The position numbers and the translations under genes were made by a program. A stretch of 64,000 nt of DNA from Patellaria atrata CBS 101060 (Eukaryota), in contig MU006089.1 in NCBI GenBank assembly GCA_010093705.1, forward strand, positions 229,570 through 293,569. Direction: 5' to 3'. Positions 1 through 20,291 of the stretch are shown in pieces. The notes under the pieces are model-generated. The model was not told where the DNA came from. It made no database searches and was given only the letters and a program-made list of their open reading frames with translations. Within the stretch, counting starts at the first letter, position 1; each line of letters opens with the position of its first letter.

Positions 1-1
1 G

Positions 2-214
2 TTTCCACGATTATCTATACTTGCAATTGAGATCCTCTCAATTCCAGCAATGAGCGATGAACCAGAACGAGTGTTTTCAGCAGCTCGTCGTACGGTATCA
101 TGGGAAAGATCACGCTTAAGTTCAAGAGAGTTAGAACATACTGAATGTCTTAAACATTGGGCAAAACAAAAAAATTTATTGAAAGGTTCGTACGATTTGT
201 TTAGTTTCACCTAA
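2..214 (+). CDS. hAT transposase, C-terminal dimerisation domain (5'-partial)
   Basis: Frame 2 reads FPRLSILAIEILSIPAMSDEPERVFSAARRTVSWERSRLSSRELEHTECLKHW..., stop TAA at 212-214. This matches the hAT dimerisation-domain consensus (P.L...A...L.IP..S...ER.FS......R..L). It is absent from the ORF track because the start is outside the window. Confidence 0.92.
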   Translation, partial: FPRLSILAIEILSIPAMSDEPERVFSAARRTVSWERSRLSSRELEHTECLKHWAKQKNLLKGSYDLFSFT

Positions 215-316
215 TGGCTACTGATCTCAGACACACGTAAAGGTACAGATCACGTCTGAGTGCTACCAACAGCCCTGGATAGCTAGGCAAAGCAGAACAC
301 CGAAACGCCAGAACGC

Positions 317-883
317 TTAAACGCCAAAGAATACTTCGTACGAAGCTCTGCTCAACCAATGATTATAGCATTTTGGGGAGTAGCCCCTCATCGTCATCCA
401 GCACAATAGCATTCCCAGGGGCGGTGCCGTCAGCTCCGTCAACCCCTGAACCAGGTCCAAGCACCCTGGCTCCTTGAGCAGGCTTATCTGGACCACCAGC
501 TCGTACGGAACAGCGTGCTGTATGGTCGCGCCATTTGCAGTTGGCGCATGTTCCGCCAAAGTGTCCCTCAGCGCGGTGACAACTAAGGAAGGGACGGAAA
601 TCTCTCGTACGACAAGCCGCACAAGGATCAACGTCACCTCCACGAGACTGGATAAGAATCCCATTGACATATGACTGCCTATGAGATCCAATCTGCTCGG
701 TGTGATAGAGTCACGTACGAACTCAACATCAACACCTCCACCGACGGCCAGAAGTGCTCTATTCTGTGGGCTGTGACACCACGGAGCCAATTGCTGCTGT
801 GTTACGAGTAGCACCGGGTTGCGGTTCGCGTGAGCGGCAGCCGTGATCGCTGGGTTATAGAGAACTACTTGCGTATTGGCCAT
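317..883 (-). CDS. 188-aa protein of unknown function carried inside the hAT element, convergent with the transposase
   Basis: Uninterrupted ATG-TAA ORF, more GC-rich than its flanks. On the minus strand it is preceded by a canonical 48-nt intron (932-885, GTAAGT...GCTAAT...TAG) ending 1 nt before the ATG, a CT-rich leader (960-987) and TATAAAA (1012-1006). No domain recognised. Confidence 0.7.
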   Translation of the reverse strand: MANTQVVLYNPAITAAAHANRNPVLLVTQQQLAPWCHSPQNRALLAVGGGVDVEFVRDSITPSRLDLIGSHMSMGFLSSLVEVTLILVRLVVREISVPSLVVTALRDTLAEHAPTANGATIQHAVPYELVVQISLLKEPGCLDLVQGLTELTAPPLGMLLCWMTMRGYSPKCYNHWLSRASYEVFFGV

Positions 884-884
884 A

Positions 885-1012
885 CTATAGTCTTATTAGC
901 CTTCGTACGATAGGTTTAAGCTGAGTACTTACACTTTGAGTTACTAAAATCAAAGATTGAGAAGGAGAGAAGAAGAGAAGAAGAGAAATTCAAAAAAAAG
1001 ATGTATTTTATA
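885..1012 (-). promoter_or_regulatory. Core promoter and intron-containing 5' UTR of the hAT cargo gene
   Basis: TATAAAA at 1012-1006, pyrimidine-rich tract at 987-960, predicted 5'-UTR intron 932-885. Confidence 0.6.
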
Positions 1013-1020
1013 CAAATTGG

Positions 1021-1072
1021 CAGGTAGGCAGGTGGGCCAGTAGACAGGTGGACAGGCAGGCACGTAGGCACG
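1021..1072 (+). repeat. Degenerate 8-bp tandem repeat (about 6.5 copies of CAGGTRGR)
   Basis: caggtagg|caggtggg|ccagtaga|caggtgga|caggcagg|cacgtagg|cacg. Confidence 0.75.
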
Positions 1073-1228
1073 CCCTCGTGCCTTCTATCTTAGAACAGCT
1101 ATAGATGTTATTCATAGCTATATAATCCCTTCGTACGAAGAGTATCTTTATTTTAATTAAATTTCTAAGAAAACGATAATATTTTAGTTGAATTCTAAAG
1201 AATATTAAAAAATCTTAAAATGCCAAGA

Positions 1229-1318
1229 GTATTGTTAAGGTATTATGATATTCGATACAATACCGATGAAATACCGAGAATACTAATACCTTATCGATAC
1301 GGATCGTTGGCCACACTG
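1229..1318 (+). repeat. hAT subterminal repeats and right terminal inverted repeat
   Basis: GTATT at 1229 and 1240 (inverted orientation). AATAC at 1259, 1270, 1279 and 1285. GATAC at 1254 and 1296. Terminus CACTG at 1314-1318. Confidence 0.7.
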
Positions 1319-1350: not shown

Positions 1351-1421
1351 TTCCCCGTAGAATGAAATTCAGTTGGACTCAGGATATATCGCCATCTTCC
1401 AACGGTCTAGAACTTCCAATC

Positions 1422-4400
1422 ATGGCACCTTCATACCGGTCTTCTTCGCAAACTCATTCTTCCCAAGGGAAAAAGCAGCAGTCAATTTCAAACTTCTTTA
1501 CCCCCAAGCCAACGCAAACATCTGCACAACCATCTATACCGAAAACTTCCTCTCTCTCCCGAGCAGAGACAGAAAAGGAGAGTGAGAATGACAAGGAAAA
1601 TGACCTTTTCTTGAGTTCTGATGAAGAAGCACCAGTTCAGCCAAGACGGGCATCGCAAAAGTCAAAACGGGTACTGGATAATGGTGAAGGCGAATATGCA
1701 GAAAACCCGCCAGCCCCTAAGAAGTCGAGGAAGAACGGAGGGAATGACAGAGAGTTTGAAGATCCCAACCAAGGAGATGTTAGAACACAAGACGGTCTGG
1801 TGTTGCAGAACCATGCTTCGTCAAAGAGTCAACGCCCAGCTACGAAAAATGATGACCATCAGATACCTTCAATTCACCCGCGGACATTGAGATATATATT
1901 TTCCAGCTCATCGATTCCAGGACAAGTTGAAGGCGAATTGGACAATGACGAAACCAAGCAAAAAAAGGAGCAGTTACACCAACGCTTCGTAAAAAAGCTT
2001 GGGAGGCCAGACAGCATAGCGGATATCAAGAGGAAAAATCATTTCATTACCGAGGATGCAGCAGATGGGGAAGACGTTGAAGATGAAGAAGTTGACGAAG
2101 AGCCTGCATCTAAACCATTGAAGGGCAGGAAAGCGACTTCGACGAAAAAGACATCCACTAAACTTACGCCGATGGAGAAGCAAGTTTTAGAGATAAAAAA
2201 TAAGCATATGGATACCTTACTGGTTGTGGAAGTTGGGTACAAGTTTAGATTCTTCGGAGAGGATGCTAGAACTGCTTCAAAGGAGCTCGGAATTGTTTGT
2301 ATTCCAGGAAAATATAGATACGATGAGCGTACGTCGATCTCACACGCCAAGGTTTTGGCCTTTCTTAAGTTGAGGCTGTTATCTGATAATTTACAGATCT
2401 CTCTGAAGCTCACATAGATCGATTTGCATCTGCCAGCATTCCAGTACATCGTCTGCATGTCCACGTGAAGAGACTTGTTGCCGCAGGGTACAAGGTCGGC
2501 GTGGTACGCCAGGTTGAGACCGCAGCACTGAAAGCGGTTGGAGATAATCGCAATGGGCCATTCGTGCGCAAACTGACTAATCTCTACACCAAAGGCACGT
2601 ATATTGATGATGTAGAAGGACTTGAGGGTCCGTCTCCGGGTACTAACAGTACAGTACCGTCCTCTGGGTACATCCTTTGCTTAACAGAGACTAATGCGAA
2701 GGGATGGGGTAACGACGAGAAAGTACAGGTTGGAATTGTGGCCGTACAACCCGCGACTGGTGACATTATCTATGACGATTTTGAAGACGGCTTCATGAGG
2801 GGCGAAACGGAAACCCGGTTGCTTCATATTGCACCGTGTGAATTCCTCATCGTTGGTTGTCTGTCAAAAGCAACTGACAAGCTGATGAAAAATTTGTCTG
2901 CAAGCAAATCAAACGTTTTTGGTGATCAGGCAAGGGTAGAAAAAGTCGAAAAACCAAAGAGCATGGCCGCGCAATCGTACAGTCATATTTCTCAGTTCTA
3001 TGCAGAGAAAATGAAGAGCACTAGCAACCATCAAGAATCACAAGATCACGTCCTAGATAAAGTCCACCAGCTGTCTGAGCATGTAACTATCTGCCTTTCA
3101 GCACTTATTACTCACATGACCGAATACGGTCTGGAGCATATCTTTGACTTGACCAGGTATTTTCAACCTTTCAGTGCTCGTTCACATATGCTACTCAATG
3201 GCAACACATTATCCAGCCTTGAAATATATCAAAACCAAACAGATTACACTGCAAAAGGTAGTCTTTTCTGGACACTCGATCGAACCAGAACCCGATTCGG
3301 CCATCGATTGCTTCGCAAATGGGTCGGAAGGCCGCTTCTAGATAAACCCAAACTTGAAGAACGTACTTCCAGTGTTGAGGAGCTACGGGATATCGAACGG
3401 ACGGTCGCAGTCGAGAAATTAAAACATCTACTTTCCGACATCAAGATTGATCTCGAGAAGTCTTTGATCAGGATCTATTATGGAAAATGCACTCGCCCGG
3501 AATTCCTTTCTGTCTTACAAGCCCTGCAGAAGATCTCAAATGCATATGCTCATATTGAGTCTCCATCAGATGCAGGCTTCCGCTCCCGAAGCTTGAATGA
3601 AGCCATTGCTTCCCTCCCTAGAATTTCTAACTTCGTTATCTCTTATCTGGAGAGATTAAACGCTCAAGCTGCTAGGGAAGACGACAAGTATAATTTTCTC
3701 CGTGACGATCATGAAACTGACGACATCACTGAGCATAAACTCGGTATTGCCGCTGTGGAGCACGACCTTGACGCGCACCGTATGTTAGCGGCAGAGAAAC
3801 TCAAAAAGAAAAAGGTGGACTATGTCACTGTAGCTGGCATTGAGTTCCTTGTAGAGGTCGACAATAACTACCTCAAGAATGTGCCGGCCTCGTGGGCAAA
3901 AATATCTGGTACCAAGAAAGTATCAAGGTTTCACACTCCAGAAGTTGTCAAGATGATCCGAGAAAGAGACCAGCACAAGGAAGCCTTAGCTGCCGCTTGC
4001 GATAACGCTTTTAAGGACCTGCTCGCTGAGGTTGCAACCAAGTATCAAGAGCTCCGAGACTGTATCCAGTCTCTCGCAATGCTTGACTGCCTCTTGAGCC
4101 TAACGGAGATATCTTTACAACCCGGTTATGTCAAGCCTAAATTTACTGCTGAGGCGACCATTTCTGTCAAGGGGGGACGTCATCCCATGGTCGAGCAGCT
4201 TCTGCTTGATACTTACGTTCCCAACGATATTAATCTCTCTTCAGACAAGACTCGCGCGCTCCTTATTACAGGTCCCAACATGGGAGGCAAATCTTCGTAC
4301 GTACGTTCTGTAGCGCTTATTGCAATAATGGGTCAGATAGGCTCGTACGTTCCTGCTGAAAGTGCAGAATTGGGCATACTTGACGCAGTTTTCACTCGCA

Positions 4401-5017
4401 TGGGTGCCTTCGACAATATGATGAAGGGTGAGAGTACATTTATGGTCGAGCTAAACGAGACCAGCGACATACTCAAGCAAGCTACACCAAGATCGTTAGT
4501 CATCTTAGACGAGTTAGGTCGCGGTACGAGCACGCATGATGGTGTTGCTATCGCGGAGGCCGTACTCATGCATATGGTAACAGACGTCAAGGCTCTCACG
4601 CTATTCATCACACATTATCAGGATCTGAGCAAAATCGCCGAGAGATTTCGTCAAGAGAGCAGTCCAGTGTTGAAGAACGTGCATATGCGATTTACCGAAC
4701 AGCAAGAAGAGGGAATTGGAAAAGGCCAGATCACGTTCCTTTACGAAGTCGGGGATGGCGTGGCACATAGGAGCTATGGGCTTAATGTTGCTAAACTGGC
4801 AAATTTACCAAAGCTCGTGCTGGAAGTTGCTGCTGTAAAGAGTAGAGAGTTAGAAGAAAGCGTATTGAGGAGAAAACTTGGTAGGATGTAAGTTGCTATA
4901 TCCTTCACATCGTCATGGTAGCTAATGCTTGGCAGGGTCCAATTTGCTGGGCGCCTCGTTGATACCAATGCTAGCGATCTTTTGGACATCCTTGTGAAAG
5001 GTATGGAACAGTTGTAG
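1422..5017 (+). CDS. MSH3: DNA mismatch repair protein Msh3 (MutS family); 2 introns (2329-2396, 4888-4935)
   Basis: N-terminal PIP box [15 protein letters not shown]...[14 protein letters not shown]; spliced [17 protein letters not shown]; Walker [24 protein letters not shown]. An alternative in-frame ATG lies at 1362. Confidence 0.96.
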
Positions 5018-5609
5018 TCACCCAAATCAAACAGACTAGTCGCGTCATATTGTGGTAAAGGAATATATGGTTGTTCAAATTATATACGATTACAACAACG
5101 ATACGTATCATTTCCTCCTCGCCCAACTTGCGAAAGAGGATGAACAGATTTATCATGTCGATTAAGCTGTTGTGGACGCATGCTGCTCCCTCATAATACT
5201 TTTAGTCTCCAGGTGCTCTTAATGAGAATATGTACGATTGTTTACTTAAATACACTGTGCGTCAAATAGATCAGTGTACAACTCAGTTTGATATATTCAG
5301 GGGTCTATTATACAGTGCAAGTGACTATAAACTCACGAATTAAGAAACTATACGTTCCACCGGCATTGACCACGACCCCATCTGCTCCCATCAGGACATC
5401 GAGTCAGAGGATGAAATCGTCTCCCGCCCAATAAAGTTGCTCGGTGATCGTATGAATGGAGTGTTGAATCTGATAAGACTTCCAAGGTAATAAACTTCAA
5501 CGGCCTATGGTCGCATCGGTCATGCTCATCTGAACTTGCGTGTTGATCGAAAAAAATGCAGTGGTAAAAAGTCGTACGGCCCATGTTGTGATTTCAGTAC
5601 AATGAGGGT

Positions 5610-5753
5610 TTAAGAACGCGCTTGTCCGCGCCCTGAGCAGCCTTTCCGGTAGCTTCTCCACCGTTTCAAGTTACGGTTTTCTGACGCATCGGATACAGGA
5701 GCGGCTGCAACGACAGTGACAAGGGCAGCGATGATAAAAGCGCCGAGCTTCAT
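5610..5753 (-). CDS. 47-aa small secreted prepro-peptide with a Kex2-type KR site
   Basis: MKLGAFIIAALVTVVAAAP (signal peptide) + VSDASENRNLKR (pro-region) + WRSYRKGCSGRGQARS*. Confidence 0.5.
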   Translation of the reverse strand: MKLGAFIIAALVTVVAAAPVSDASENRNLKRWRSYRKGCSGRGQARS

Positions 5754-6940
5754 AGTATATAACACTGAAAAATCCAGCAGGTGGTTTGATAATGAATGAT
5801 GATTGAGACTTTGATAGTGAGTGGAAGCGGGTGGTAATCTAGCCAGGTCTAGATCCAGAGATTTTGTAGTTTGGGAGAGAGAAGAAAATTTTACTGGGGT
5901 TATCAAGGTCGGGCTTTAAATGATCCAACTTAGGGCAATTCAAAGGCACAGTCAATAAAGAGATGCTGAAGTGGTTGTCAATAGCATTGACAGTGATCTT
6001 CGCCCTAAAGGGGTCCTCAATAGCAGTTGCTGAAGACATCCGCTTTGTTCATAGAACCATAGCAGCTCCTCGACCAAGATTATTTTGGAAAGACTTACTC
6101 TAAGGAAGGGTGGAGGCAAAACTCTCCATATATGTAGTTGACACATCAACTATACCGCATGAAGGAATGTAGTCATCGAAACTCCACCAAGGTCGTGCAG
6201 AGGATATAGGATATATGAACTCAAGAATTAAGTGCAATGCAAGACGGGGAGCAGAAGGTCGTCAACAAAGTGCTCAACGAACATAGACTCCATGTCCCTC
6301 CTCTGGGAATACTATAGAAGGGCCCCTTTTGGCAGCATAAATGAAAGATGATCAGAGAGACCGAAAGGTCAGCTGAGGTAAGAAAGCCAGGAGTTCACAA
6401 GGGAGGAGACTCTTCCTCCCACGTCATATCCTTAGATTAGTCCGTTAAATTGAAGTTTAAAGTTCAGAGTATCTGACGGAAATGATGCTCAATAAGAATA
6501 CCCTAACCAAATGTGGTCTTCAATAAAGTAATTTTCAAACGTTTGATATGTTCCAGCTTGGAGAAGAGGTTTTTTCATTCAGCGAACAGTGGTGTACGGA
6601 TCTTTCATGGATATAACAATATAGGCACTAACAAGATGTGTCGAGTAGTTCGTTTACTGTAGCATGGTATGTTATTAACACTTAACTCGGTAATATCTCG
6701 TACGATGAATAAGGTCTGTTTTCCAAGTCGCTATTAGGGCTACCCTATTGAAACTTCTAACTATGGCCTTAATGAACGTTGATACAAATAGTCTGGGGAG
6801 ATGGCGGAGGTTGACGTTTCGTAGACGCAGGTGAGGTTAAGGTTAAAACTACGGAGGGTAGACAGTTCTCATTGGTCCATTTGCCGGGATCACGTGAAAG
6901 CGCGAAAAGGAGCGTAGCCCTACAAGCTTGTGAGGGCCAA

Positions 6941-9144
6941 ATGTTCTTCTGCAGAATGAGAATGAGACTTACCATATTCAATTCAAAGTTCAGCACTGCA
7001 ATACGACCATCTGCATCGGCATGGGTCTGTCCTTCCTGCATACTGCGATCTGCACCGCGACGCCGCATTGCAAATGTTGCTACACGGGATAAACCCTACT
7101 ACCTCTCTACGCCGATATTCTATGTCAATGCTGGTATGTAAAAGCTATTATTATTCTACTCAAGCCATACTAAAATACTATCTGTCAGCTCCACATGTAG
7201 GCCATCTATACACAATGGTTCTCGCAGACATCATCAAGCGATGGCAGATATTACAAGGGAAAAAGGTCATACTTTCTACGGGGACTGATGAACATGGCAT
7301 GAAGGTATCAAATAATGACTCACCCTAATTTGCGTCAGTGCTAATTGTTTATCAATTAGTAGATCCAACAAGCTGCTTGGAAAGCCGGTAATGATCCAAA
7401 ATCTTTCTGCGACGAAGGTGCCGATGTCTTCAAAGTACTACGAAAGCTCCCATCTCACGAAACGGCCTCATTCTAAACATTTGGCAGACTCTCGCCGCAC
7501 GTGCCGATGTTAGTCACGATCACTTCGTTCGCACGACCGACGCAAATCATAAAGAAGCCGTTCAATATGCCTGGGTAAGCTCAAGTGCCAACCCAGTTTT
7601 GGTTTCAATGTGCACCATGACTCTAATAGCATGGCAGAGACTTCTAAGAGATAGAGGGTACATCTACGCATCAAAACATGAGGGGTGGTATTCCGTCAGC
7701 GATGAGACGTTCTATCCTCAATCGGGAGTTCATCTCGTATTAGAACCGAGTACGGGTCGTAAAATGATGGTATTTTTTACCGTAAATCCGTCATAACTTA
7801 TCTGATATCACAAAGGCATCGATTGAGACTGGTAAGGAGGTTGAATGGACATCCGAAACAAACTATCATTTCCGACTATCAGCCTTCAAGTCCCAACTGC
7901 TCGATTTCTACGATCAGAATCCGGGATGGGTTATTCCAAATACACGTATGCAGGATGTCGTGCAGCAGGTATTACAAGGATTAGAAGACTTGTCAGTATC
8001 GCGCCCAACCGAGCGATTATCCTGGGGTATTAGGGTACCAGATGACGAAAGCCAGACCATTTACGTTTGGCTTGACGCCCTGTTGAATTATGCTACTATT
8101 ATAGGATACCCATGGACACCCGGTTACGAGCGGCTTGCAGGCTGGCCTGTAGACTTGCATGTGATTGGAAAAGACATTGTCCGGTTTGTTACTAACAGAC
8201 TCCCTCATAGCTAATAGCTGATACATATTCTCCAGGTTTCATTGTATCTACTGGCCCGCATTCCTTATGGCTTTAGATTTACCGCTCCCAAATCGGGTAT
8301 TAACAACGGCTCATTGGACCCTAGGGCGTCAGAAAATGGCAAAGTCAACTGGAAATGTTGTAAATCCCTTCTTCGCTATCGACCGTTTCGGTGTAGATGC
8401 CATGCGATATTACCTGGCACACGACGGTGCTATTACCGACGACTCCGATTATAGTAATGAATATATCATTGAGAGATATAAGAAAGGTTTGCAAAACGGT
8501 CTTGGTAACCTCGCAAGTCGAGTTCTTAGAGGCAAGTCGTGGAATGTGCAAGAATCGATCCAAACGACTCGATATCGGATTATCAACGATGACCCACCTG
8601 GCGAGTTCAGCAGAAAACAGTGGGCTTTGTTAAGGGACTTGCCAAACACGGTAAAAACCCACATGGAAGAATGTCAAGTTGGGCAGGCGCTGAAGGTCGT
8701 TATGGATGCGGTTTATCAGGTAAGAAACTGATGAGGTCTCGATCCACAGTTGAGAATGAGCGTCAAATTAACTGGAAATCTCAAAAGGGCAACAAATACT
8801 TGCATCACGCTGCTCCATGGTATCATGTGCCGCCGAGTCCCACGCACAATCCCAACACCCATATGAACGTTCCTCCAGAGTTTAAGCAGAGTCCTGAGGA
8901 TGCTGAATATGTCAACACATGTATATTTATCTGCGCAGAGACTCTCAGGCTCGTCGGTATTCTACTTCAACCCTACATGCCTACCAAATCCAACCAGTTA
9001 CTGGATATGCTAGGCGTGGACACCACCAGGCGAGCTTTTGAGTATGCGCATGTGGGAGCCGATGGTGACTATGGACAACCTAATGTTGATCTTGGCAAGG
9101 GGCATAAAGGCGCATTGTTCCCGCCTTTGTCCAGCGAATCCTAA
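6941..9144 (+). CDS. MSM1: Mitochondrial methionyl-tRNA synthetase; 7 introns
   Basis: Arg-rich presequence; PYYLSTPIFYVNAAPHVGHLY (HIGH motif); GTDEHGMK; YVWLDALLNY; IGKDIVRFH; KMAKS (KMSKS motif). The exons join through canonical GT-AG introns. Confidence 0.95.
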
Positions 9145-9509
9145 ATTTCGATTCAAAGTAGGTTGTATAAATGAATTGTAAAATACAATTTGTATAATGC
9201 GATAGTTGGTATAATAATTACTTCTACATACGACTTTGCGGTTACGCCATCTATTTTACACAAATTATCAATACAGAGTACAGTGACTCAATATCCGCTT
9301 AAAACGATAATGTGGGAGGCGAAGCTCGTCTTGTGACCTTTCCGAAGCGTGCCAGTCCTACTTGACACCGGTAGACTATCTTCTTTGATTCGAAATATAA
9401 AGGCTGGTGAGCATAAAAGAAGGCAAATATTAGACTGTATGTTCTCTTCATACAGCCAGGAGCGTCTGAATTGAAGGTGGCTTTCTTTTCTGGTAGTGAC
9501 TACTACATA

Positions 9510-11150
9510 TCATTCAATTTTACTGCTTGCTTTCGACCCGTACCTCCGTTCGTAGTCATCGTTGACCGCTTGAATTGCTGCAGCTGCACCATCCCACTTT
9601 TTCCGCTTCCCATCAAAGAGCCTCAATATATGAGGTGAATCTACACCCCCCATGAGCAGATTGCACTGAGACGGATTTTTCAACCAATACCACCAGCCTC
9701 GCCAGCCGTATCCCAAGTTCTCATTAACCCCGGTTCCTGCGGCATCGTTGAGAAATCTACGCCATCGTTCTTCGTGGACCTTGTATAGCGAAGCATTACG
9801 CTCGTTCGGTACCACTTTCCTAAGCCACGTATAATGATCGTCTATAGCTCTATTCATCTCCTCTTCCGCCGGAAGGGAACTAGCACCTTTCCATATTTGT
9901 GTGATTGCCATGCAGCAGAGATCGCCGGCTTCGCAGATACCGGTTGGAAGCTGCCAGCTGTCCAAAAATGCCAGGGAATGCGCATACGCCGGTGGAAAGA
10001 TGTTCTGGTATAAACGCGGTAAACCTCCTTTGTTCTCACTGTGTAGAGCGCCAGTCCGGATGTTAGTGACGAGAGATGTGTCGGTGGTGTATCCGGTACA
10101 AGCGATGATACAATCCACCTTAATGCACGATCCGTCATCAAGTTCTACATTCTTATCATCAACGATGCGCTTGAGGTTCGCAACGGACTTGACGTCCCCT
10201 CGCTGCAGTGCTGGCATGAATGTATCTGACAACATCACCTGTAGAGAAGCTCGAGACGCTGCTGGTCTCATGCGCCACTTTGGGTCCGGTGGACAGCTGG
10301 AATCGCTCAGCTTAGCGAGCTGGGTTTCCATCATGTTGTCAGTCCATCCGGGGGCCACAACCATGAGCATCTCCAAGATAGCATCGAGTCTCCGGTTCCG
10401 TATCTGATCGGCAGGTTTGCCATTTGTGATCCTGGGTATGGCGTATGCTCCTCGCCGGTGCGCTACATAGATATCCTTCGCTATTCCTACGAGATCGGTG
10501 GATATATCTCCAGCTGAGTTGCCAATTCCCAGAACTAGAACAGTCTTGCCTCGATAGGACTCGGGGCCTTTGTACGCGCTTGCATGAGTGATTCTGTCTG
10601 GGCCAAAGAACCCTACCCCTGAAATGATCGGAGGAGTGCGTTGACATTGCTTGCCAGTACAAATTAGAACTTTATCAAAATAGTGCTCTTCTGTTAATGA
10701 GTCATCTGTGTTGCTGCTCGTTGCTGAGTGATGAACTTTAACCGTCCATCCTGATTGATTAATTTGTTGATTTTCTCCCTTGGATTCGCGAGCTTTCACC
10801 TCCAGGACTTCCGTGTTGAATTGTATCCTCGATGTTAAATTGAATGCTTGGGCGTAATCTTGTAGGTATTCCAGGAATTGAGGCTGGGTCATATACGGCG
10901 GGTACTTTTCATCGAAAGGGAAGTCGCTAAAGCAGTTTCTGTACTTGCTGATGTTGAGTATCGTTGTTTTACTGACGGTTGTGATATTCGGATCATCGGA
11001 ATATGCCCACAGGCCCCCAAGAACATCCCTACGTTCAAAAATCGTTGCATCAAAGTCCTCTTCCAAAAAGTTTTTGAGTGCGCAGAGCCCGAGAGGCCCG
11101 GCGCCGATTACTGCGACTCGGGTGCTCGGCTGAGCTTTTTCGCTAGACAT
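9510..11150 (-). CDS. Flavin-containing monooxygenase (class B, dimethylaniline monooxygenase-like), intronless
   Basis: FAD motif GAGPLG, FMO-signature-like FFGPDRITHASAYK, NADPH motif GIGNSA, ACTGY. First ATG at 11150. Confidence 0.93.
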   Translation of the reverse strand: MSSEKAQPSTRVAVIGAGPLGLCALKNFLEEDFDATIFERRDVLGGLWAYSDDPNITTVSKTTILNISKYRNCFSDFPFDEKYPPYMTQPQFLEYLQDYAQAFNLTSRIQFNTEVLEVKARESKGENQQINQSGWTVKVHHSATSSNTDDSLTEEHYFDKVLICTGKQCQRTPPIISGVGFFGPDRITHASAYKGPESYRGKTVLVLGIGNSAGDISTDLVGIAKDIYVAHRRGAYAIPRITNGKPADQIRNRRLDAILEMLMVVAPGWTDNMMETQLAKLSDSSCPPDPKWRMRPAASRASLQVMLSDTFMPALQRGDVKSVANLKRIVDDKNVELDDGSCIKVDCIIACTGYTTDTSLVTNIRTGALHSENKGGLPRLYQNIFPPAYAHSLAFLDSWQLPTGICEAGDLCCMAITQIWKGASSLPAEEEMNRAIDDHYTWLRKVVPNERNASLYKVHEERWRRFLNDAAGTGVNENLGYGWRGWWYWLKNPSQCNLLMGGVDSPHILRLFDGKRKKWDGAAAAIQAVNDDYERRYGSKASSKIE

Positions 11151-11832
11151 GGCATCAAAAGTCTTCCAAGTCACAGGCCTTTTACAGTATCTAAGTGAAA
11201 AGTCTATCGATGAGTATTGTTCTAAGCAGTTGTATATCGTAAAGATGAAAGGTTTGCAAAGTTCGAGAGAAGTTCAACTGTGAGCAGTAATAAAAGATTT
11301 TCTATTTAAGCACTATTAGGTCTAGAGCGAAAGGGATCACTTGGTCAGTAAGGCTGTGCCGGTGTCTCAGCGTGACTTTAGCGATATCACACTAAAAAGT
11401 GTTGGTTGTATAGTATGTACAGTACAATGCACCCGAATAGGATTATCTGCATTCTGTCCCCATCCAATCATTGAGAATACTTTCCCATGGTCCAACACAG
11501 AGCTGATGCAAGATGGGTACGAAAATCTGCACTACTGTGGCCCATTCGATTCGAATCTACCACGCCGTTAGCGAACACAGGGAACCAAAGTCATGTTCGA
11601 TAGGATCATGGTGGGAATTTCAAGCGGATCAGCGATGGTTGAACGGCGATTCACCCAAGTGATGCCTCCATCGTGCGTATAGCAGAGATCTTAATGCTTC
11701 GAATAGCTCCATTGATAGGCCACTGTTTTCATTTCTCTTAGAACCTGTAAATACAGAGGCGCTGCCAAACATGATGCGCCAGACCCGATGCTAAACCCCC
11801 ATCGTGTTTCATTTCCCCGCAATCTGAATCGT

Positions 11833-12551
11833 TCATCTGACGATGCCCTCGAATCGGTTCTTGTACCATTTAATGGTTTCGGCCTGGTTGATACGGTGGG
11901 AAGCACCGATTCTGCTCTTGCATCGTCTCCTCTTTGATACGCGCTCTCCAGGACGAGTCCTTACACAAGTGTCAGTATATGTTTTACGACACTCGCCATT
12001 CCGTTGCACTCACATGCAGCAGTAGAAATCCATGCCGTAGATTCCAATAGCGGGATCATACTTGATTCCTAGATCAATATGTTCGCTAATTCCGAAGCCG
12101 AAGTTGCCCGTCTCACTGAAGTTTCGCTTGCGCAGTTCGTACTCCTTGACTTTCAGACCACGCTCAAGGATTTCCTCCGCTTTGGGTCCACGGACAGTGA
12201 CATGCACAGCAATTTTTTCGTTACGACGGATACCGAAAGTACGGACAGTGTATCGAGCCTTGCCTGTAGGAGGGGCAATGGTTAGTCGACCGTGCTTAAG
12301 AGGATCAAAATGTTAAGCAGCGCAAGGGGAGATAAGCACGCACTGTAGACTGGAGTTTGACCACTCAATTGTTCGAGCACCTTTGCAGCACGAGTAAGTC
12401 TGTCACCAGATTCACCGACAGAGATGTTGAGGACGAGCTTCTGGATGCGAAGCTCCCTCATGGGGTTGCTGCTCTTGTCTTTGCCTTCAGCCTATCGTGT
12501 ATGTTAGAGCTTGGGATCGTAAATATATGTAAGTGATATTAGTTTTACCAT
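11833..12551 (-). CDS. RPL11: 60S ribosomal protein L11 (uL5); 3 introns, first coding exon is the ATG alone
   Basis: [79 protein letters not shown]. Confidence 0.97.
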
Positions 12552-12824
12552 TGTGCAAAATGTGGTTTGTCGGCAGTTGTTGTATCTCTGTCCTGGCGCG
12601 GTGGTATACAGAAACAAATTTGGGGGAGGAGAATGGTGCGGATCTCGCTACAAGCCTTGGCATCTGCAGAGCCTCAATATCAACCTTAGCTTCGAAGTCG
12701 AGCTCCGTCCACCCCACAAGAGTTCTCATATTCTCCACGTCCACACTTCGCAATACAAATACTGTTGTTATTCATCTTAATCCTGTTCTAGGAAAGGTCG
12801 TTTTTCGACACGCCGTATGTAAGC

Positions 12825-13825
12825 ATGGCGGCGAACAAGCAGGGCAAGATGGTCAGTCTCACATTCCATTCTATCTCTAGCATCACTAGAATTGTTCGTT
12901 GACGATAGTAGCTGACTTCGGAAACTCCAGCAAAACCTCGTGAGCGGTCCTTCATTCTATATCTCTATAGCGACAACTTGATTCGCATAACATCCAATCC
13001 TAACGATTTCCTAGGTTAATTATCGGATGAGAGCTACTCTCAATGACGGCAGACAGATGGCGGGTCAGATGCTTGCATTCGATAAAGTATGTTAGATTCT
13101 ACATATGCTATTTTATTATACTAACAGGAGCATCAGCACATGAACCTCGTCCTCGCTGATACGGAAGAATTCCGTCGCGTCAAGCGTAAACCACAGAAAG
13201 GCGCAAGTGCTCCTGGTGCAGCATCTGCCCCATTAGTTGAGAGTGAAGAGAAACGAACCCTTGGCCTTACCATTGTACGGGGCGCTCAGATCATCTCGCT
13301 CTCTGTCGACGGCCCACCGCCAGCGGATCCATCTGCACGATTAGGCGCAGCAGCGCCAAGCGGGAGTGCGACTGTAGCTGCAACATTAGCTGCCGGTCCC
13401 GGAATAAGTAAACCAGCAGGGCGTGGCCTACCGGTCGGGTTGACAGGACCCGCTGCCGGCGTAGGCGGGCCCGGACCAGCTGGTTTCGGGGCAGGTTTCC
13501 CACCACCACCGGGATTTCCAGGTGCTGGTGGACCACCAGGCTTCGGAAGAGGTGGCCCTCCCGGAGGCGGACCACGTAAGATCTCTTAGAATAAATGCAG
13601 CCCCTAGGTTTCCGTGCTAATTTCTATTGTAGCTGGGGGCTTCCCACCTCAAGGTTTCCCACCTGGTCAAGGAGGACCACGTAGGTTTACTTTTCTCCCA
13701 TATTTTCTCCCATATAGCACGCACCCGCTGATCATCTTATAGCTGGTAGTTTCCAACAACCACCACCGGGTTTTCAACCTCCTGGCGGAGGACGGGGTTT
13801 TCCTCCAGGCTTTGGTGGCAGATAA
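12825..13825 (+). CDS. SMB1: Small nuclear ribonucleoprotein SmB; 5 introns including a 9-nt micro-exon (12931-12939)
   Basis: MAANKQGKM-QNL-VNYRMRATLNDGRQMAGQMLAFDK-HMNLVLADTEEFRR...EEKRTLGLTIVRG, followed by a Pro/Gly-rich tail. Divergent from RPL11 across 273 bp. Confidence 0.95.
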
Positions 13826-14414
13826 TGTCCGCATGGGCTAAGCCTAAGCCTGGAAATTCAAAAGCAGCCGAGCATCTATGCTCGAGTGTGCTTTATACAT
13901 ATAGCACCCTCCTAGATGGGATTTGAAAAGGTTGAAGCTACAATAAGTTTTATGTGCTTATTAGTGAGTACGTGACGTGAGGTGACATAGTCATGGGGGG
14001 GGGAATCAATCGGGACTTGGGAGAAAATATTGGCGGAATCTGCGAAACCTGGAAAATTCCATGTCGGTTGACGCCTTGATGGTAGCATAGCGAGATATTG
14101 AAGTTAAAATGATACCCTGTGCCATCCGATTCGTTCTTGAACGATTACTTCCTTTAGCCTAGGAAATGAGATATTATTGCGAAAGATGTTGTAGCTCCAA
14201 ATGCAGTTATAGTTGTCGGTTGAAGTCTCGGACCGCAACCCTGCCAAACTCCGATCGCCGGCCCCAATAATCCCTAAGCCATTCCTAAGCTTGACGACTT
14301 CACCTTACTTTGTACCTTGCGAGCTTGATACCTTCTTGAAATCAGCAAGTTCGTCACGCCTTTAAAAACATCTTCTACGAGCACTTACGGAAAGGAAAGG
14401 TGAGACGTAGAACA

Positions 14415-15178
14415 ATGGCGGCTGCGATAAAGGCGATCAATGCGAAGATTCGCGCAAACCCGGTGTCAAACTATGTCTGCTCGACTCGTGAGTGCGGCCC
14501 ATATTCCACCCATACAGGATATTGTTGGAGGACTAGATAGCATCGAGAAAATCGGGCGCATTAGAAGACTGCTAACGTTGAGATCTCTCGCTCAGACTTT
14601 TGGGGCCCAGTCTCGAACTTCGGTATTCCCGTAGCGGCCATAATGGACACGCAGAAAGACCCCGAGATGTACGAAAATATCTATCATATGTTATACTTCA
14701 TAATCATATCCTATACCTACAACATTCACCTGACTGGCTGTTGTTGAGATTTGTCTTAGACACGCACATCTCCCCACCACTTCTCTCAACACAATGTAAG
14801 AGACAACTTTGCTGACACAAACTACAGTATCTCCGGCCGCATGACCGGCGCTTTAGCAATCTATTCAGCAGTCTTCATGAGATACTCTGTCGCGGTCACA
14901 CCTAAGAACTATCTACTCTTCGGATGTCACTTCATCAATTGCGGTTCACAGTTGATCCAAGGATACAGATACCTACAGTACTGGAAGTGAGTAGTAACCC
15001 TAATATAGCAGCGAAGATCTTTGTGACCCTAAGGATGATCTATGTTTGTCCATAAGGGCTGACATATGATAGTTTCGGCGGACGGGAACAGACCCTCAAG
15101 GGGATGGGAAAGGAAGGAGCATCGAAGGTGGAGGACAAGGCGAAAAATGTTGCTGAAAAGGTGTTAAGGCAGAAATGA
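14415..15178 (+). CDS. MPC1: Mitochondrial pyruvate carrier 1; 3 introns
   Basis: Spliced [39 protein letters not shown]...FMRYSVAVTPKNYLLFGCHFIN. Not present in the ORF track. Confidence 0.94.
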
Positions 15179-15545
15179 CCAATAGATGAGGGAAAGAGCG
15201 GAGGATTCGAACAAACGAACTGGGATGATCTTGGATTCGATGCAGATACCACATTCAGTCCCAAGGCGCACTGTACGGTACACCTGCGGAAGGCCGAGAA
15301 CTGATTTATCCATTCTGATCTTCAAGTTATACAGTAAAATCTTTTAAGGATACATCGACATCGTGTTCCTCGGTTCCATCCGTCTGTACAGAACTTTTGT
15401 GCTGGTATCATCGAACGAAAGCCACTTTTTCCTCTACCAACCCGAAAAGCATTTTATACTACAATCTGTACAAAAATTAAAGATTTGAAAACTTCAAACT
15501 TCTATGCTCGTGTTGAGACGGGCAATGTATGCTTTGACCTGCTCA

Positions 15546-18198
15546 CTAATGGTGGAATAGCCTAATGTGCTGTTCCACGAACGTGATACCTAGTTTCTCA
15601 GCCGTGGAGAATACGGCCTGATCGTTCTGGCTACCGGTAGGCGCAGCTATGTATTTGACCCCTGAACGAGCAGCTCTGAAGACGTTGTCGATGAATGGGA
15701 ACTATTACCAACGTTAGTGTCAAAAATCGTCCATTGGCTCTTAATTAAGGGATGACACAAAATACTTACGAAAGCATCTGAACTGCAGGCTACTTCGGAG
15801 ACGTTGTTGAGCCATTCTTCGCGTTCGGTGTCAGTGAACGGTGTGGGCACGTAGCCTTCCTCAAAATTCTTTTCGTAGTCGTCCCTTTCGATACCCGATT
15901 TAGGTAGCTGTTACATTTGAAACAAGGTAATTAGACCCATATTCAGCGCAGTCCTCAACAGGAAATACTTACGGAGCCACTGCAAAGCATATCAATCGCA
16001 TTTGCCTTATCAGCTCTCTTGATACCTTTCCTCCATTTAAGATCTAGAGTCCGCGGGTTGAAGCGCATCCACCAGTTGTCGGCCTTATCACCTGCCAATC
16101 GAGTGCAGTGAATCCGAGCTTGAGAAAGATGAGCGATAGACACCAATACATTAGAAGAGAGTGACTCACACTGCTGTCCAGCACCTAACCCGACCACTTG
16201 TCCATTGAGAGCATAACAGACTGAGTTTGATTGAGTATATTTGAGCGCAATAGTCGCAACCGTGAGATCTCTCAGCGCGGACTCTTTCAGCGGCCCTGAA
16301 TTCTGAGGCACAATGATATCGCCAAATGTGTCCACTGGAGAAATTCTTGCGTCGTTGCGCTGCTGGGTCAAATATATCCCGTATGCCATCCTAGTCTCTT
16401 GCGTGGGCGGCTCATACTCTGGATCAATCTGTAAAATCAGATACTTGCCACCTTTTTTCCTCTTGAGGATCTCCAAAGCCTCTGGCGCATACCCTGGAGC
16501 AATTATCCCGTCTGAAACTTCCCGGCTGATGATCTTAGCAGTGGTCACGTCAACTTCATGAGAAAGCGCTATCATATCCCCAAAGCTAGACATGCGATCG
16601 GCACCCCTAGCACGGGCATATGCTTGTGCTAACGGGGAGTTTTCGAGACCTTCGATATCATCAACCATGTATACTTTTCTCTCTACCTCTGATAGCTTTA
16701 CGTCTATCGCCGCACCTGCTGGTGAAACTGCGAACATATACTATAAGTATTATATTTTCCAACACAATCTGAGGTCTACCTACCGTGTTTGAAACTAGCA
16801 GCGGCAGCATGGCCGGGAAACGCTTGACTAAGTTCCTTAACGAGAGGCCACGCGTTGAGCTATACATGTTAGAGAGATACTATCGTAGGCAGGAGAGCAA
16901 ATATACCGCATCGAGGAGATTGATGTACCCTGGTGCACCGCATAACGTTCGAAAGGGAAGTTTCGCATCTTTCATGTATGCCGCGGCTGGCTTTTGGTGA
17001 GGGTTTGCTCCATATCTGGAAGGAAGGGTTAGCTTGAACACTGCATAAAACACAACAAGTGAACAAGATCTACCTTAGTGAAATCTGTTGCTTGCCATCT
17101 CCCGTGGAGTATTGACGTCGGAAGAAGTCGGATATCGCATTGTCGTAATCTGCGGTATGCTCAAAAGCTTTGAGGGCATATAGTTGTCGCAGATCCTGTG
17201 AGACTTCTCCATCCTCGATGGCGGTAAGGAAGTCATGGTATTGAGAAGGATGAGTAAGAACTGATACTCGCAAATGGTTCTTTGCAGCAGCTCTTAAGAG
17301 GGTAACACCTTTTGCCCATGGTTAGAATAATAGAGTGTAAAAGAACGGTCGAGATCATACCGCCAATGTCAATTTCCTCTACCGCTTCCGGTATTGTGAC
17401 ATTGATCTTTGCAACCGTTTCCTTGAAAGGGTCTATAAAGTATAAGGACTTTGTCTGGGAGGGGAAGCTGGGACAGACTGACACAAATTGCAAATGACAT
17501 AGTCGATCTTAGAGATATGTTCCCGCAGAAGATCTTCCTATACTTGGGCATCAGTAAATGCATTAGATAATTTAAGAATCAATCTGACCTCGTCGGCGGG
17601 TAAGTCTCGGGCGAGAATGCCAGCATGAACCTACACATATCAGCCGTGTTCTACGTAGGCAGATGATTGCAATTACGGCAGCTGTATTGTGTTAGTAGTT
17701 GCTATGATATGGATTTCATGGGGAGATTCAACCTACGGTGGAGGGACTTCACGCGTCCATTCAGCATTTCAGGGGCTAAGGCTTTGTCAGCTCCAATATG
17801 TTATTCCAGTTACAGAAAGCACATTTCACCCTTGGTAATTGAGGATATATCATCCACTGGAAAGCCAGCCTCGCGTATCATTTTGGCAGTACCGCCAGAA
17901 GCAAGCATTCTGATCCCATTGTCAACTGACTGGAGATGCAACAGAGGAATTTGCTTATAACAGAGTAGATTCAATCATACCGAACTCCATTCTTCTCGAG
18001 ACCTTTGGCAAGATCTAAATAATCCCTAAAGCATCAGCATGGAAGCATCAAGACCGGTATCGGAGACCGCACCTAAAATGCCTTCCTTGTTATAAACACT
18101 CAGGATGGCTGTAGAAGTGGTGTCAGACGGCGACTAAGATGAAAATTCACTGCATACAACTCCATACCGATCTTCTGTGAATCCCCAGATGCCATCAT
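15546..18198 (-). CDS. ADE17: Bifunctional AICAR transformylase/IMP cyclohydrolase (PurH/Ade16/Ade17); 15 introns
   Basis: [97 protein letters not shown]; ends RLFHH*. Start ATG at 18198 or 18195. Confidence 0.96.
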
Positions 18199-19176
18199 GA
18201 GCTTTTGATACTCCGAATTCTTCGATGTAGAGTTTGGAGGGGTATACGGTAAGAATTTCTAGATCTATAAAATGTTTTTGATACCCCTCGATTGGGCCAA
18301 GGGGCGTCATCATAGTGCAATGGAAGGGGGCCAAGGGGGGCACATCTAATTCTCCAAGCTAGGCCTTGACAGCGGTTGTATCTCGGCATTGACCCTGAAA
18401 ATCCAGTACTTAAAATTCATTTTCTCTCCCAATTTTCCTTTTCTTCTTATGAACAACGCAAATTTCTAACACTCACTAAAAGCATTTTCGATCGAGGAGC
18501 CCGTCATTCCTAACGGATTGACGTGAGGCTCCCATGAGCCCGAGAACCGTCATGATGAGTGAAGATAGAAGTTGACTGATCTTGGGTGCGGTGCCTTCTC
18601 CTTCCATGGAAGGGGCTGCAATGATCGGTCGTACATTCAAACGTTTTAATACTGTCCTTGGTTGTCTGAGATACAGTAGGAACTTCATATGATATTCGAC
18701 AGTATCTCATGAATGCTCCTCTTACACCCGCCTTCTTTCGATTCAGTGTTCACATGGGCCTGAAAGTTCTTTGGTCGTCTACGCTAGACCCAAACCATGT
18801 CTGATGAGATATAGCAGAAGCTATGTTTTGGGGGAAATAACGCCCTTTGAAAGTTCGTGATGCAACCTGTATGACTGTTATAAGTTTTATCAGCGGAGAC
18901 GATGCAGAAAATCCATACTATACACTCTTCTTACCCTAGGAAAGCACAAGAATACGCCCAAAGGAACCTATGAGAGTCTCATAATCTCATGTGTAGTATC
19001 TATATCTTACTGCCTGGCCAAAACCACTCGTTCATTTGCATAACCCGCTCTATATTATACAATGAGTTGTGTATAGTACATATAGTAAAACCGACGGCCA
19101 ACCAAAACGCTGTATGCAATGCTCAAGGCCACTGCATTATGTTCATTCACACTATTTTTACACGGTCCATCTGAGT

Positions 19177-20291
19177 TCAGCGTCTGTTGGATCGGAAACT
19201 TTGTGGCATCTTTCCTATATTCCCCGCACCCTCCTCCACTGCAGCCCAATTAATTCTATCCCACCAGTTCTCCAAGTACTTCATCCTATCCTTGACGCCG
19301 TAATCTCTTATGTAAACGTGCTCCCAGGTGTTTACACATAATATTGGTGTGACGTCCGCACCTCCGGGGGGTAGTCTGGTTCCTACTTTTGTTGCGTATG
19401 GACCAGTAATGCCGGCTGTATTCTGCACTTGTGTCTGCTGACGCACGTAGTCTGGGTTGGACAGACTGAGACCCCCTTGGGCACTGCTGGGGAGAGGCCC
19501 GGTGGTATTCATATCTAGTGGTTGCTGTCTGTAGTGTGCCCCAGACAACGGACTGCCAGCAATGTATGTATTCAAAATCTTGAATTTGGCACCCTCTTCC
19601 TTCGTATATGATTTTACTAGCCATACGAATCCGGGCCCAAACATGGAGTCAGCGGTACCGAGGAAGGTGTCGCGAAGGGTCTCCATTGAAGAAAAGGAAT
19701 CAAGAAGCGCGGATACGAATGTTGAGCTTGGCGGAGTGGGAGTTGTTTTGTTCGAGAGACAGTTAAAGAAGAAATGATTGTTATGCGCCATACTTGCGGC
19801 ATTAAATAGGGGGGCTAGGTTAGGATCGCGTGCGGATTTTATGATGAGCGTCTTGATCGAAGCGTTCTCCAGTTGGGTGCCTGTGAGGATACGGATTAGC
19901 AACTAGGAGATGCAATGAAGCTACCATCTGATAAATCTTTCGGACGAGGATGGAAAGTATTGGTGTTAAACATGGTCATTCGTACCACTCGTGAGCCTAT
20001 CCAACTTTTCGAGCATGAATGATTGGTATTGTGACCACGCAATCTGAACGCCATCCGACGACATGAAGCCAGGATATCCGTTTCGCAGAACCTCATCTTC
20101 GTCTGCTAGATTTGGCATTATATGACGGTATCTCCGCTGGTATAAATCTACTACACCGGGGCGACATCTCTGTTGATGGAATTAGCATAGGTGCTGAGGA
20201 TCGAACTGATGACGGGATGGTGGTTTCTTACTGGGGTTTGGGATACAGCTCGCCATAGTGTGGTCGGCCGTGATAAGGATTGTAATATCAT
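19177..20291 (-). CDS. Fe/Mn-SOD-fold mitochondrial small-subunit ribosomal protein (Rsm26/Mrp1, mS42/mS43 family); 2 introns
   Basis: Arg-rich presequence; IAWSQYQSFMLEKLDRL; LFNAASMAHNNHFFFNCL; FGPGFVWLV; PILCVNTWEHVYIRDYG. The DxWEH metal-ligand Asp of true SODs is replaced by Asn. Confidence 0.85.

Follow-up and report, generated by a model that had tools for sequence, protein, structure and literature searches.

Why should one short palindrome recur eight times within little more than a kilobase at the end of a fungal transposon? The question arises at one edge of a 64,000-nucleotide stretch of Patellaria atrata CBS 101060 (contig MU006089.1, positions 229,570 to 293,569 of the forward strand; hereafter the window), which starts within a hAT transposon and contains its right-hand 1318 bp. 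Here the hexamer CGTACG runs through the end of the transposase gene, a convergent gene encoding a DUF3716 protein and the non-coding DNA beside them. Across related loci the motif is enriched independently of codon usage, sits at conserved positions with regular spacing and sharp borders, and co-occurs with DUF3716. We propose a portable two-part module, in which an array of the palindrome YCGTACGR is paired with the DUF3716 zinc protein as its predicted reader, and which would keep the chromatin of the element active. Judging from sequence, we give this reading a probability of roughly 0.55.

An exact scan of the window found CGTACG at positions 89, 189, 337, 502, 606, 714, 904 and 1132, just where a first-pass annotation of this DNA had placed it. 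That annotation was equally right in assigning the 8-bp form TCGTACGA to five of the eight sites and in recognizing two 12-bp palindromes, CTTCGTACGAAG, which occur only at 334-345 and 1129-1140. One further TCGTACGA lies at 6698. The sites (to which no strand is assigned) and the features around them are as follows.

89 to 94: site 1, in Arg-Thr codons of the transposase, phase 0.
189 to 194: site 2 (TCGTACGA), in Ser-Tyr-Asp codons near the transposase stop, phase 1.
337 to 342: site 3, centre of the 12-bp palindrome spanning 334-345; it separates the stop codons of the two convergent genes and matches a site class at the 3' end of the DUF3716 cassette.
502 to 507: site 4, in Ser-Val-Arg codons of DUF3716, phase 2.
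606 to 611: site 5 (TCGTACGA), in Arg-Thr codons that follow the first CxxC of DUF3716, phase 0; a position common to 5 of 43 non-redundant loci.
714 to 719: site 6, in Phe-Val-Arg codons of DUF3716, phase 2; a position class common to 16 of the 43 loci.
904 to 909: site 7 (TCGTACGA), 21 bp ahead of the start codon of DUF3716; a position class common to 17 of the 43 loci.
1132 to 1137: site 8, centre of the 12-bp palindrome spanning 1129-1140; no further site follows before the element end.
363 to 883, reverse strand: DUF3716 gene, single exon, convergent with the transposase, in frames 883-698 and 698-366 with a stop codon at 365-363.
2 to 214, forward strand: tail of the hAT transposase (Pfam Dimer_Tnp_hAT), comprising its last 70 codons (coding 2-211) and stop codon (212-214).
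1 to 1318, forward strand: right-hand part of the multi-copy hAT transposon, delimited by read depth and loose contig ends.
1225 to 1318, no strand assigned: subterminal region without CGTACG, with other short repeats (AATACC four times, TATCGA three times).

The whole window contains 21 copies of CGTACG against 7.5 ± 2.6 expected, and the 62.9 kb outside the element contain 13, in line with the dozen or so that had been estimated by eye. Against the eight sites in 1-1318, dinucleotide-preserving shuffles, 5000 in number, gave 0.22 on average and 3 at most (Poisson probability about 1e-10). No other 1318-bp stretch of the window has more than four, and CGTACG is the most over-represented hexamer of the stretch. 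Since only a single 1-mismatch variant is found there, copies are either exact or absent. Five of the eight sites are coding, all three codon phases are in use, and none of 10,000 synonymous-codon shuffles of the corrected gene model reached five coding sites (mean 0.53). Some background sites in the window are ordinary: those at 4296, 4300 and 4344 are the Ser-Tyr-Val codons of a nucleotide-binding motif in the adjoining MutS-type gene.

We then turned to related loci, which were fetched from metagenome contigs by alignment of 30 DUF3716 relatives; the search patterns were peptides and not the DNA motif. Out of 224 matching stretches 165 were confirmed, and the best 80 (393,229 bp) were kept. 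These 80 loci contain 1257 CGTACG against 57.6 expected, and 567 copies of TCGTACGA. At least one CGTACG is present in 76 of the 80, and the enrichment reaches a Poisson P<1e-4 in 60, which makes the cargo gene, already named as a candidate binder in the first-pass annotation, the best candidate for the reader among loci chosen for DUF3716. Collapsing near-duplicates left 61 families with 984 sites against 46.8 expected, 44 of them at P<1e-4. The eight longest loci have their sites gathered into blocks of 1-7 kb with sharp limits, each with a DUF3716 gene, at 7.10 sites per kb inside and 0.15 per kb outside. Control transposon open reading frames (ORFs) lying outside the blocks on the same contigs have few sites: a LINE-like ORF has 2 in 3.3 kb and a pogo-like ORF 1 in 2.1 kb.

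The arrays are not confined to hAT elements. A Pfam scan took in 40 of the 179 candidate frames in 20 loci and 59 of the 131 in the remaining 60, a selective sample in which the longest frames were chosen, and assigned 33 of the 80 loci to six classes; the others are short contigs or unclassified.

hAT: 12 loci, plus L007 by shared 25-mers; Dimer_Tnp_hAT and zf-BED.
Crypton-like, a label we presume for carriers of NDC10_II with GCR1_C: L051, L063 and L075.
Ty3/Gypsy: L079, L017 and L022; pol domains.
Ty1/Copia: L035, L073, L047, L038, L042, L025 and L033; pol domains.
IS3EU-like, as the class is inferred: L003 and L034; rva_4/rve with Clr5.
Unclassified giant ORF: L068, L052, L032, L043 and L050; DEAD/Helicase_C with OrsD.

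Each of 16 array-covered ORFs from these relatives has more sites than any of its 300 synonymous shuffles (a Copia pol, for example, has 45 sites against a mean of 6.5), with 143, 87 and 119 sites in the three codon phases. The claim that the motif is not explained by codons thus holds against dinucleotide-preserving and codon-preserving nulls alike, in the window and among its relatives. Of 17 loci in which the positions of both genes could be determined, 12 resemble the window in having DUF3716 and the main gene convergent (the exceptions being L079, L068, L038, L029 and L032), and in L017, L022, L035, L073 and L047 it lies on the opposite strand behind pol. Two of the Copia loci, L035 and L073, are circularly permuted long terminal repeat (LTR) units that include the DUF3716 gene.

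Two further observations concern the carriers. The giant frames (L068:816-5483 and L052:2971-7359, also L032, L043 and L050) are about 1500 amino acids long, combine an OrsD-type zinc domain with DEAD/Helicase_C, are covered by the array and adjoin DUF3716; on their sequence they may represent an unclassified class of mobile element. In the Crypton-like locus L051 (10425-10896), a 257-bp tandem duplication between DUF3716 and the recombinase gene copies several TCGTACGA sites, and such duplication is therefore one route of array growth.

The arrays share a consensus and a rhythm. The consensus is YCGTACGR, with T before the core at 71% of sites and A after it at 63%, and flank preferences differ only mildly between elements. 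Across 1122 gaps the mean is 152 bp and the median 138 bp, with a coefficient of variation of 0.63 against 0.92 for random placement; gaps below 60 bp make up 11% against 32% expected, and all-pair distances peak near 150, 300 and 420 bp. The array thus has a quasi-period of about 145-150 bp, a length that we infer to be close to that of the DNA on one nucleosome.

Positions are conserved as well, a check that had been named before the analysis. The window's transposase tail can be aligned to 16 hAT relatives, and site 1 (Arg-Arg-Thr) is retained in 15 of the 17 sequences while nearby synonymous positions vary. Among the 43 non-redundant loci, sites recur at set places of the DUF3716 cassette: the position of site 4, at +40 to +44 relative to the CxxCKW codons (a 5-nt window), is occupied in 15, and in many cassettes a site immediately precedes the cassette's start codon. 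None of 40 variant places listed from contigs aligned to the window falls in a CGTACG site, a weak result by itself. Consistent with the proposal of the first-pass annotation that the motif is a tag on the DNA itself, the arrays combine conserved positions among relatives with regular spacing and sharp block borders.

The protein encoded by the convergent gene matches DUF3716 (PF12511; E 1.9e-12, 47.3 bits against a cut-off of 22), with a sub-threshold match to Agouti as the only other profile match; a homologue search among longer proteins returned none. In this copy the gene is broken by a 1-base deletion near 698, where two frames abut (...VEFVRDSITP / EQIGSHRQSYVNGILIQSRG...) that jointly cover the whole protein, as judged by aligning them first to 29 relatives and then to two hAT relatives whose single-exon genes are intact. 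A minority of contigs of the same organism, mostly divergent ones, have one more G at 697/698. A model with a 71-nt intron was ruled out by alignment with the single-exon homologues, and site 714, once assigned to that intron, proves to lie in coding sequence. From these sequences it seems that the recently multiplied family carries the broken gene and that an older subfamily, about 87% identical, keeps it intact.

How far does the array extend along the element? The summed depth of public contigs aligned to the window, which is not a copy number, is 3000-20000 over 1-1318 and 316/456 in the flanking DNA; from 1289 onward there is a unique 30-kb contig, and loose contig ends lie behind 1318. 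This contrast in depth, together with the contig starts and loose ends, clearly marks the element as multi-copy and puts its right end at 1318 (...GGCCACACTG, which reads CAGTGTGGCC inward from the element end). Its transposase tail matches Dimer_Tnp_hAT (PF05699) with E 3.1e-12 and 46.5 bits against a cut-off of 21.4. No further copy of the element was found within the window. The view that sites spread throughout the transposon stands for 89-1137 and fails for the last 181 bp (1138-1318), which have no CGTACG and carry the AATACC and TATCGA repeats instead; by their sequence, these appear to resemble the usual hAT subterminal repeats. Two hAT relatives, L005 and L065, have inverted ends of 17 and 25 nt, which also begin with CAG, and lengths of 3336 and 3426 bp between those ends. 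Their 17 and 24 CGTACG sites extend over nearly the entire element; no matching 8-bp target duplication was seen at either. The eight sites at 89-1137 are probably the right-hand third of an array over the whole element of about 3.3 kb.

Several observations concern the element and its setting. Contigs from runs labelled as two other organisms match it without any difference (X3 over 1-653 and 737-1318, X4 over 1134-1288); these could mean that one species is filed under several labels, that there is contamination, or that the element was transferred very recently. A deletion variant among copies is also present: one contig each in runs X1 and X2 skips 78 bp of the AT-rich stretch (1140-1219) that separates the subterminal repeats from the last CGTACG site. 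A MutS-family (MSH3-like) gene lies at 1364-5020, and because its start is about 50-100 bp past the transposon end, the insertion sits in its promoter region.

What kind of protein would read such an array? A search for DUF3716 relatives returned 177 at E<=0.001, which share a conserved N-terminal part (...SHRPSYINAILIQSRG...) and the cysteine pattern CxxC-x10-C-x10-CxxCKW-x8-C. Among 30 sequences four of the six cysteines are invariant and the two of the first CxxC are at least 90% conserved; the window protein has all six. The core of about 110 residues is basic (mean net charge +7.4), the tail is acidic (-6.7), and 21 of 74 proteins end in the hydrophobic motif xP(I/V/L)3. A structure model from 78 sequences is confident for residues 15-125. 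Foldseek found no match for it in the Protein Data Bank (PDB), a wide VIA-align search gave none at Z>=2, a PDB profile search gave an unrelated channel as its best match (E 0.39), and the ESM Atlas returned only DUF3716 clusters, from Ascomycota. Prediction of a homodimer with zinc scored 0.01, which gave no verdict either way.

Not every DUF3716 gene has an array beside it. The array-free relatives in L062, L071 and L072 have longer reading frames, of about 300 amino acids, and those in L012, L057 and L044 adjoin HET, NACHT-like or GTPase genes; judging by sequence, these relatives, including that of L059, may be host-recruited members of the family. No different motif, which would be a sign of co-evolution between protein and site, was found in the array-free loci. 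Two dead relatives without an exact site, L045 and L066, have decayed arrays, with 18 and 39 transition-derived versions of CGTACG against 4.2 and 8.6 expected and CpG observed/expected ratios of 0.11 and 0.29. Such C-to-T and G-to-A decay would fit cytosine methylation of silenced copies and is our sole hint of a link to methylation. Solo DUF3716 cassettes also occur (L055:8771-10335 and L069:9305-10338), with their own arrays of 7-8 sites over 1-1.5 kb, host-type genes around them and no transposase in the vicinity; each may be a domesticated copy or a small element that is non-autonomous.

Taken together, we think it quite likely that DUF3716 binds the CGTACG tag. It would bind the palindrome YCGTACGR, probably as a dimer and at roughly one site per 145-150 bp, and would cover almost the full length of the element, coding sequence included. 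Such a coat would keep the chromatin and transcription of the element active, whether by anti-silencing or by activation; this purpose is the one we favour, by analogy and tentatively, at somewhat less than even odds. A site just ahead of the start codon, as in many cassettes, would suit this purpose. The module would be portable, the gene and the hexamer array recurring together in six transposon classes with unrelated mechanisms. For its direction, the effect leans on the banana pathogen Pseudocercospora fijiensis, in which extra promoter copies of TCGTACGA accompany higher cyp51 expression; the authors suspect that a factor still unknown is involved and that the repeats came from a transposon (PMC6637983, PMC8252799, as far as the accessible text of each goes). 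The palindrome there is the same 8-bp word in a Dothideomycete, although it forms a tandem insertion of 2-6 copies in the promoter of a host gene, whereas here a kilobase array lies in a mobile element. A link between the cyp51 repeats and DUF3716, which the accessible parts of those papers do not make, is conjecture by analogy. A broader version of the proposal, which we regard as doubtful, would make DUF3716 a 'chromatin passport': present about once per nucleosome length, it would keep any ascomycete transposon class free of heterochromatin or cytosine methylation, or activate it, and the same factor would lie behind the TCGTACGA effect in the cyp51 promoter.

Several points weigh against the proposed module. 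The DUF3716 gene is frameshifted in this copy and apparently in most of the young family, so the protein is not needed in cis and must act in trans if at all. The first Crypton-like copy in L063 has an array and no DUF3716 gene of its own, and about eight loci have DUF3716 without an array or with a decayed one (L044, L062, L071, L072, L012, L004/L018 and L057/L059). Sampling ran one way, in that all 80 loci were chosen for DUF3716 and arrays in genomes without the gene lie outside its reach, and the control transposon ORFs number only two. The modelled fold matches nothing solved and no DNA-binding fold is recognized in it; it neither favours nor opposes DNA binding. Finally, the direction of the effect rests on a single published promoter correlation in another species.

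Which other explanations could account for the array? An artefact of chance, composition or codon usage would fit the three background sites in the adjoining gene, which are plain Ser-Tyr-Val codons. Because dinucleotide and synonymous-codon shuffles are exceeded everywhere, with all three phases and non-coding DNA in use, codon and composition effects are excluded, and the probability that we leave to this explanation is negligible. hAT elements carry short repeats near their ends, a point in favour of reading the sites as subterminal binding sites of the hAT transposase. However, the sites run through the whole element and are missing from its last 181 bp; since the same array occurs in five non-hAT classes with other enzymes and the hAT ends carry other repeats, binding by the transposase is also excluded, at a probability that is very small. 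With both readings set aside, DUF3716 as the binder is the simplest explanation, because the tag travels with one small, basic zinc-protein gene.

Two alternatives deserve more weight. DUF3716 might read the array for self-restraint (recruitment of heterochromatin, a limit on copy number) or for handling of a free double-stranded DNA intermediate (protection, nuclear import, chromosome tethering), and the co-occurrence of DUF3716 and array fits these roles equally. Such an intermediate is made by hAT, Crypton, IS3EU and LTR elements and not by LINEs, and the only LINE-like ORF lies outside the array, although this argument is a single case. The acidic tail and terminal hydrophobic motif would suit any adaptor role, and the expansion of the young family while its gene was frameshifted fits a factor that is dispensable or restrains the element. 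Against this, the sole functional datum for the motif, from the accessible accounts of the cyp51 promoter, points to activation, and we consider restraint or intermediate handling unlikely. A little less probable again is that a host transcription or genome-defence factor reads the array while DUF3716 is a non-binding passenger, competitor or adaptor. The action of TCGTACGA in a P. fijiensis host promoter, as described in those same accounts, would fit a host reader, as would a hexamer core shared by six classes with only mildly different flanks and the lack of a recognized DNA-binding fold in DUF3716. A host reader would explain neither the coincidence of array ends with element borders, nor the company of this one gene in six classes, nor the arrays that the solo cassettes have of their own; the strongly basic, cysteine-rich core of DUF3716 also argues against it. 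We continue to favour DUF3716 as the reader of an array that would keep its element active.

The proposed module has partial counterparts, described here from the accessible parts of the sources. The closest known system is that of the VANC anti-silencing proteins and their target motifs in the VANDAL transposons of Arabidopsis (Hosaka et al. 2017, PMC5735166). There too a transposon-encoded accessory protein is paired with a short motif concentrated in its own elements, as it is here with a DUF3716 gene inside the repeated unit and site densities of 7.10 against 0.15 per kb. VANC is a sequence-specific protein with an effect along the whole element, as is predicted of DUF3716. VANC targets are described as non-coding and often tandem, and differ between related VANCs; here one hexamer core runs through coding sequence at intervals of about 150 bp in six classes, and DUF3716 is a fungal protein family, unlike the plant VANC.

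Fungal elements offer further likenesses. REP9, an IS3EU transposon of Zymoseptoria tritici, carries two DUF3716 genes (PMC8232023) and is thus a DNA transposon of another superfamily with DUF3716 as extra genes, a pairing that L003 and L034 repeat with an integrase-type gene; the accessible text of that paper mentions no motif array. In Boty-like Gypsy elements of Botrytis, brtn is an antisense extra gene (Zhao et al. 2011, as cited in PMC8365987), comparable to DUF3716 behind pol on the opposite strand in L017, L022, L035, L073 and L047, whereas the window's hAT gene is convergent with the transposase; the likeness is one of position, and the accessible part of PMC8365987 describes no motif array. 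In fungi, heterogeneous DNA transposons likewise carry TET/JBP dioxygenase genes (PMC12730594), a single accessory gene of plausible epigenetic function across unrelated lineages, but these encode an enzyme of another protein family, with no cognate DNA word array in the accessible account.

Short repeated words are also found within hAT elements as subterminal repeats. The CGTACG sites differ from these in being palindromic, in not being subterminal, and in occurring in coding sequence and in non-hAT elements; the real subterminal repeats of the window's element are other words. Literature searches for DUF3716, for the 8-bp palindrome, for CGTACG with fungal transposons and for fungal anti-silencing returned, among the papers listed, no description of the arrays or of their link to DUF3716. 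Motif-and-protein systems of the VANC kind and antisense extra genes in fungal LTR elements are already known; what differs here is a single hexamer shared by six classes, regular arrays through coding sequence and an apparently unrelated fungal protein.

Dense CGTACG clusters occur elsewhere. A scan of viral contigs for three TCGTACGA at gaps of 115-145 bp returned three loci (L081-L083) on phage-like contigs, and none has a CxxCKW reading frame. Their clusters are short and dense, with 9-12 sites within 0.5-1 kb, and two of the contigs are high in GC. By their sequence, we regard them as a separate prokaryotic use of CGTACG that is unrelated to the DUF3716 arrays.

If the proposed module is real, it would provide a function for DUF3716, a widespread ascomycete domain of unknown function, and would explain the extra antisense genes of many fungal transposons. 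Unrelated transposon classes would then share an exchangeable module of protein and DNA word, with selection acting on synonymous positions in their genes, and the plant VANC system would have its first counterpart in fungi. CGTACG blocks with a site roughly every 150 bp would be a simple signature for active or recently active elements and their borders. The reader of the array could also serve as a compact, sequence-specific tool for fungal chromatin work, and in a crop pathogen it would be a candidate for the protein that recognizes a palindrome already associated with promoter variants for azole resistance. Should the broader version hold, a field mechanism of fungicide resistance in the banana pathogen P. 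fijiensis would be tied to a transposon protein.

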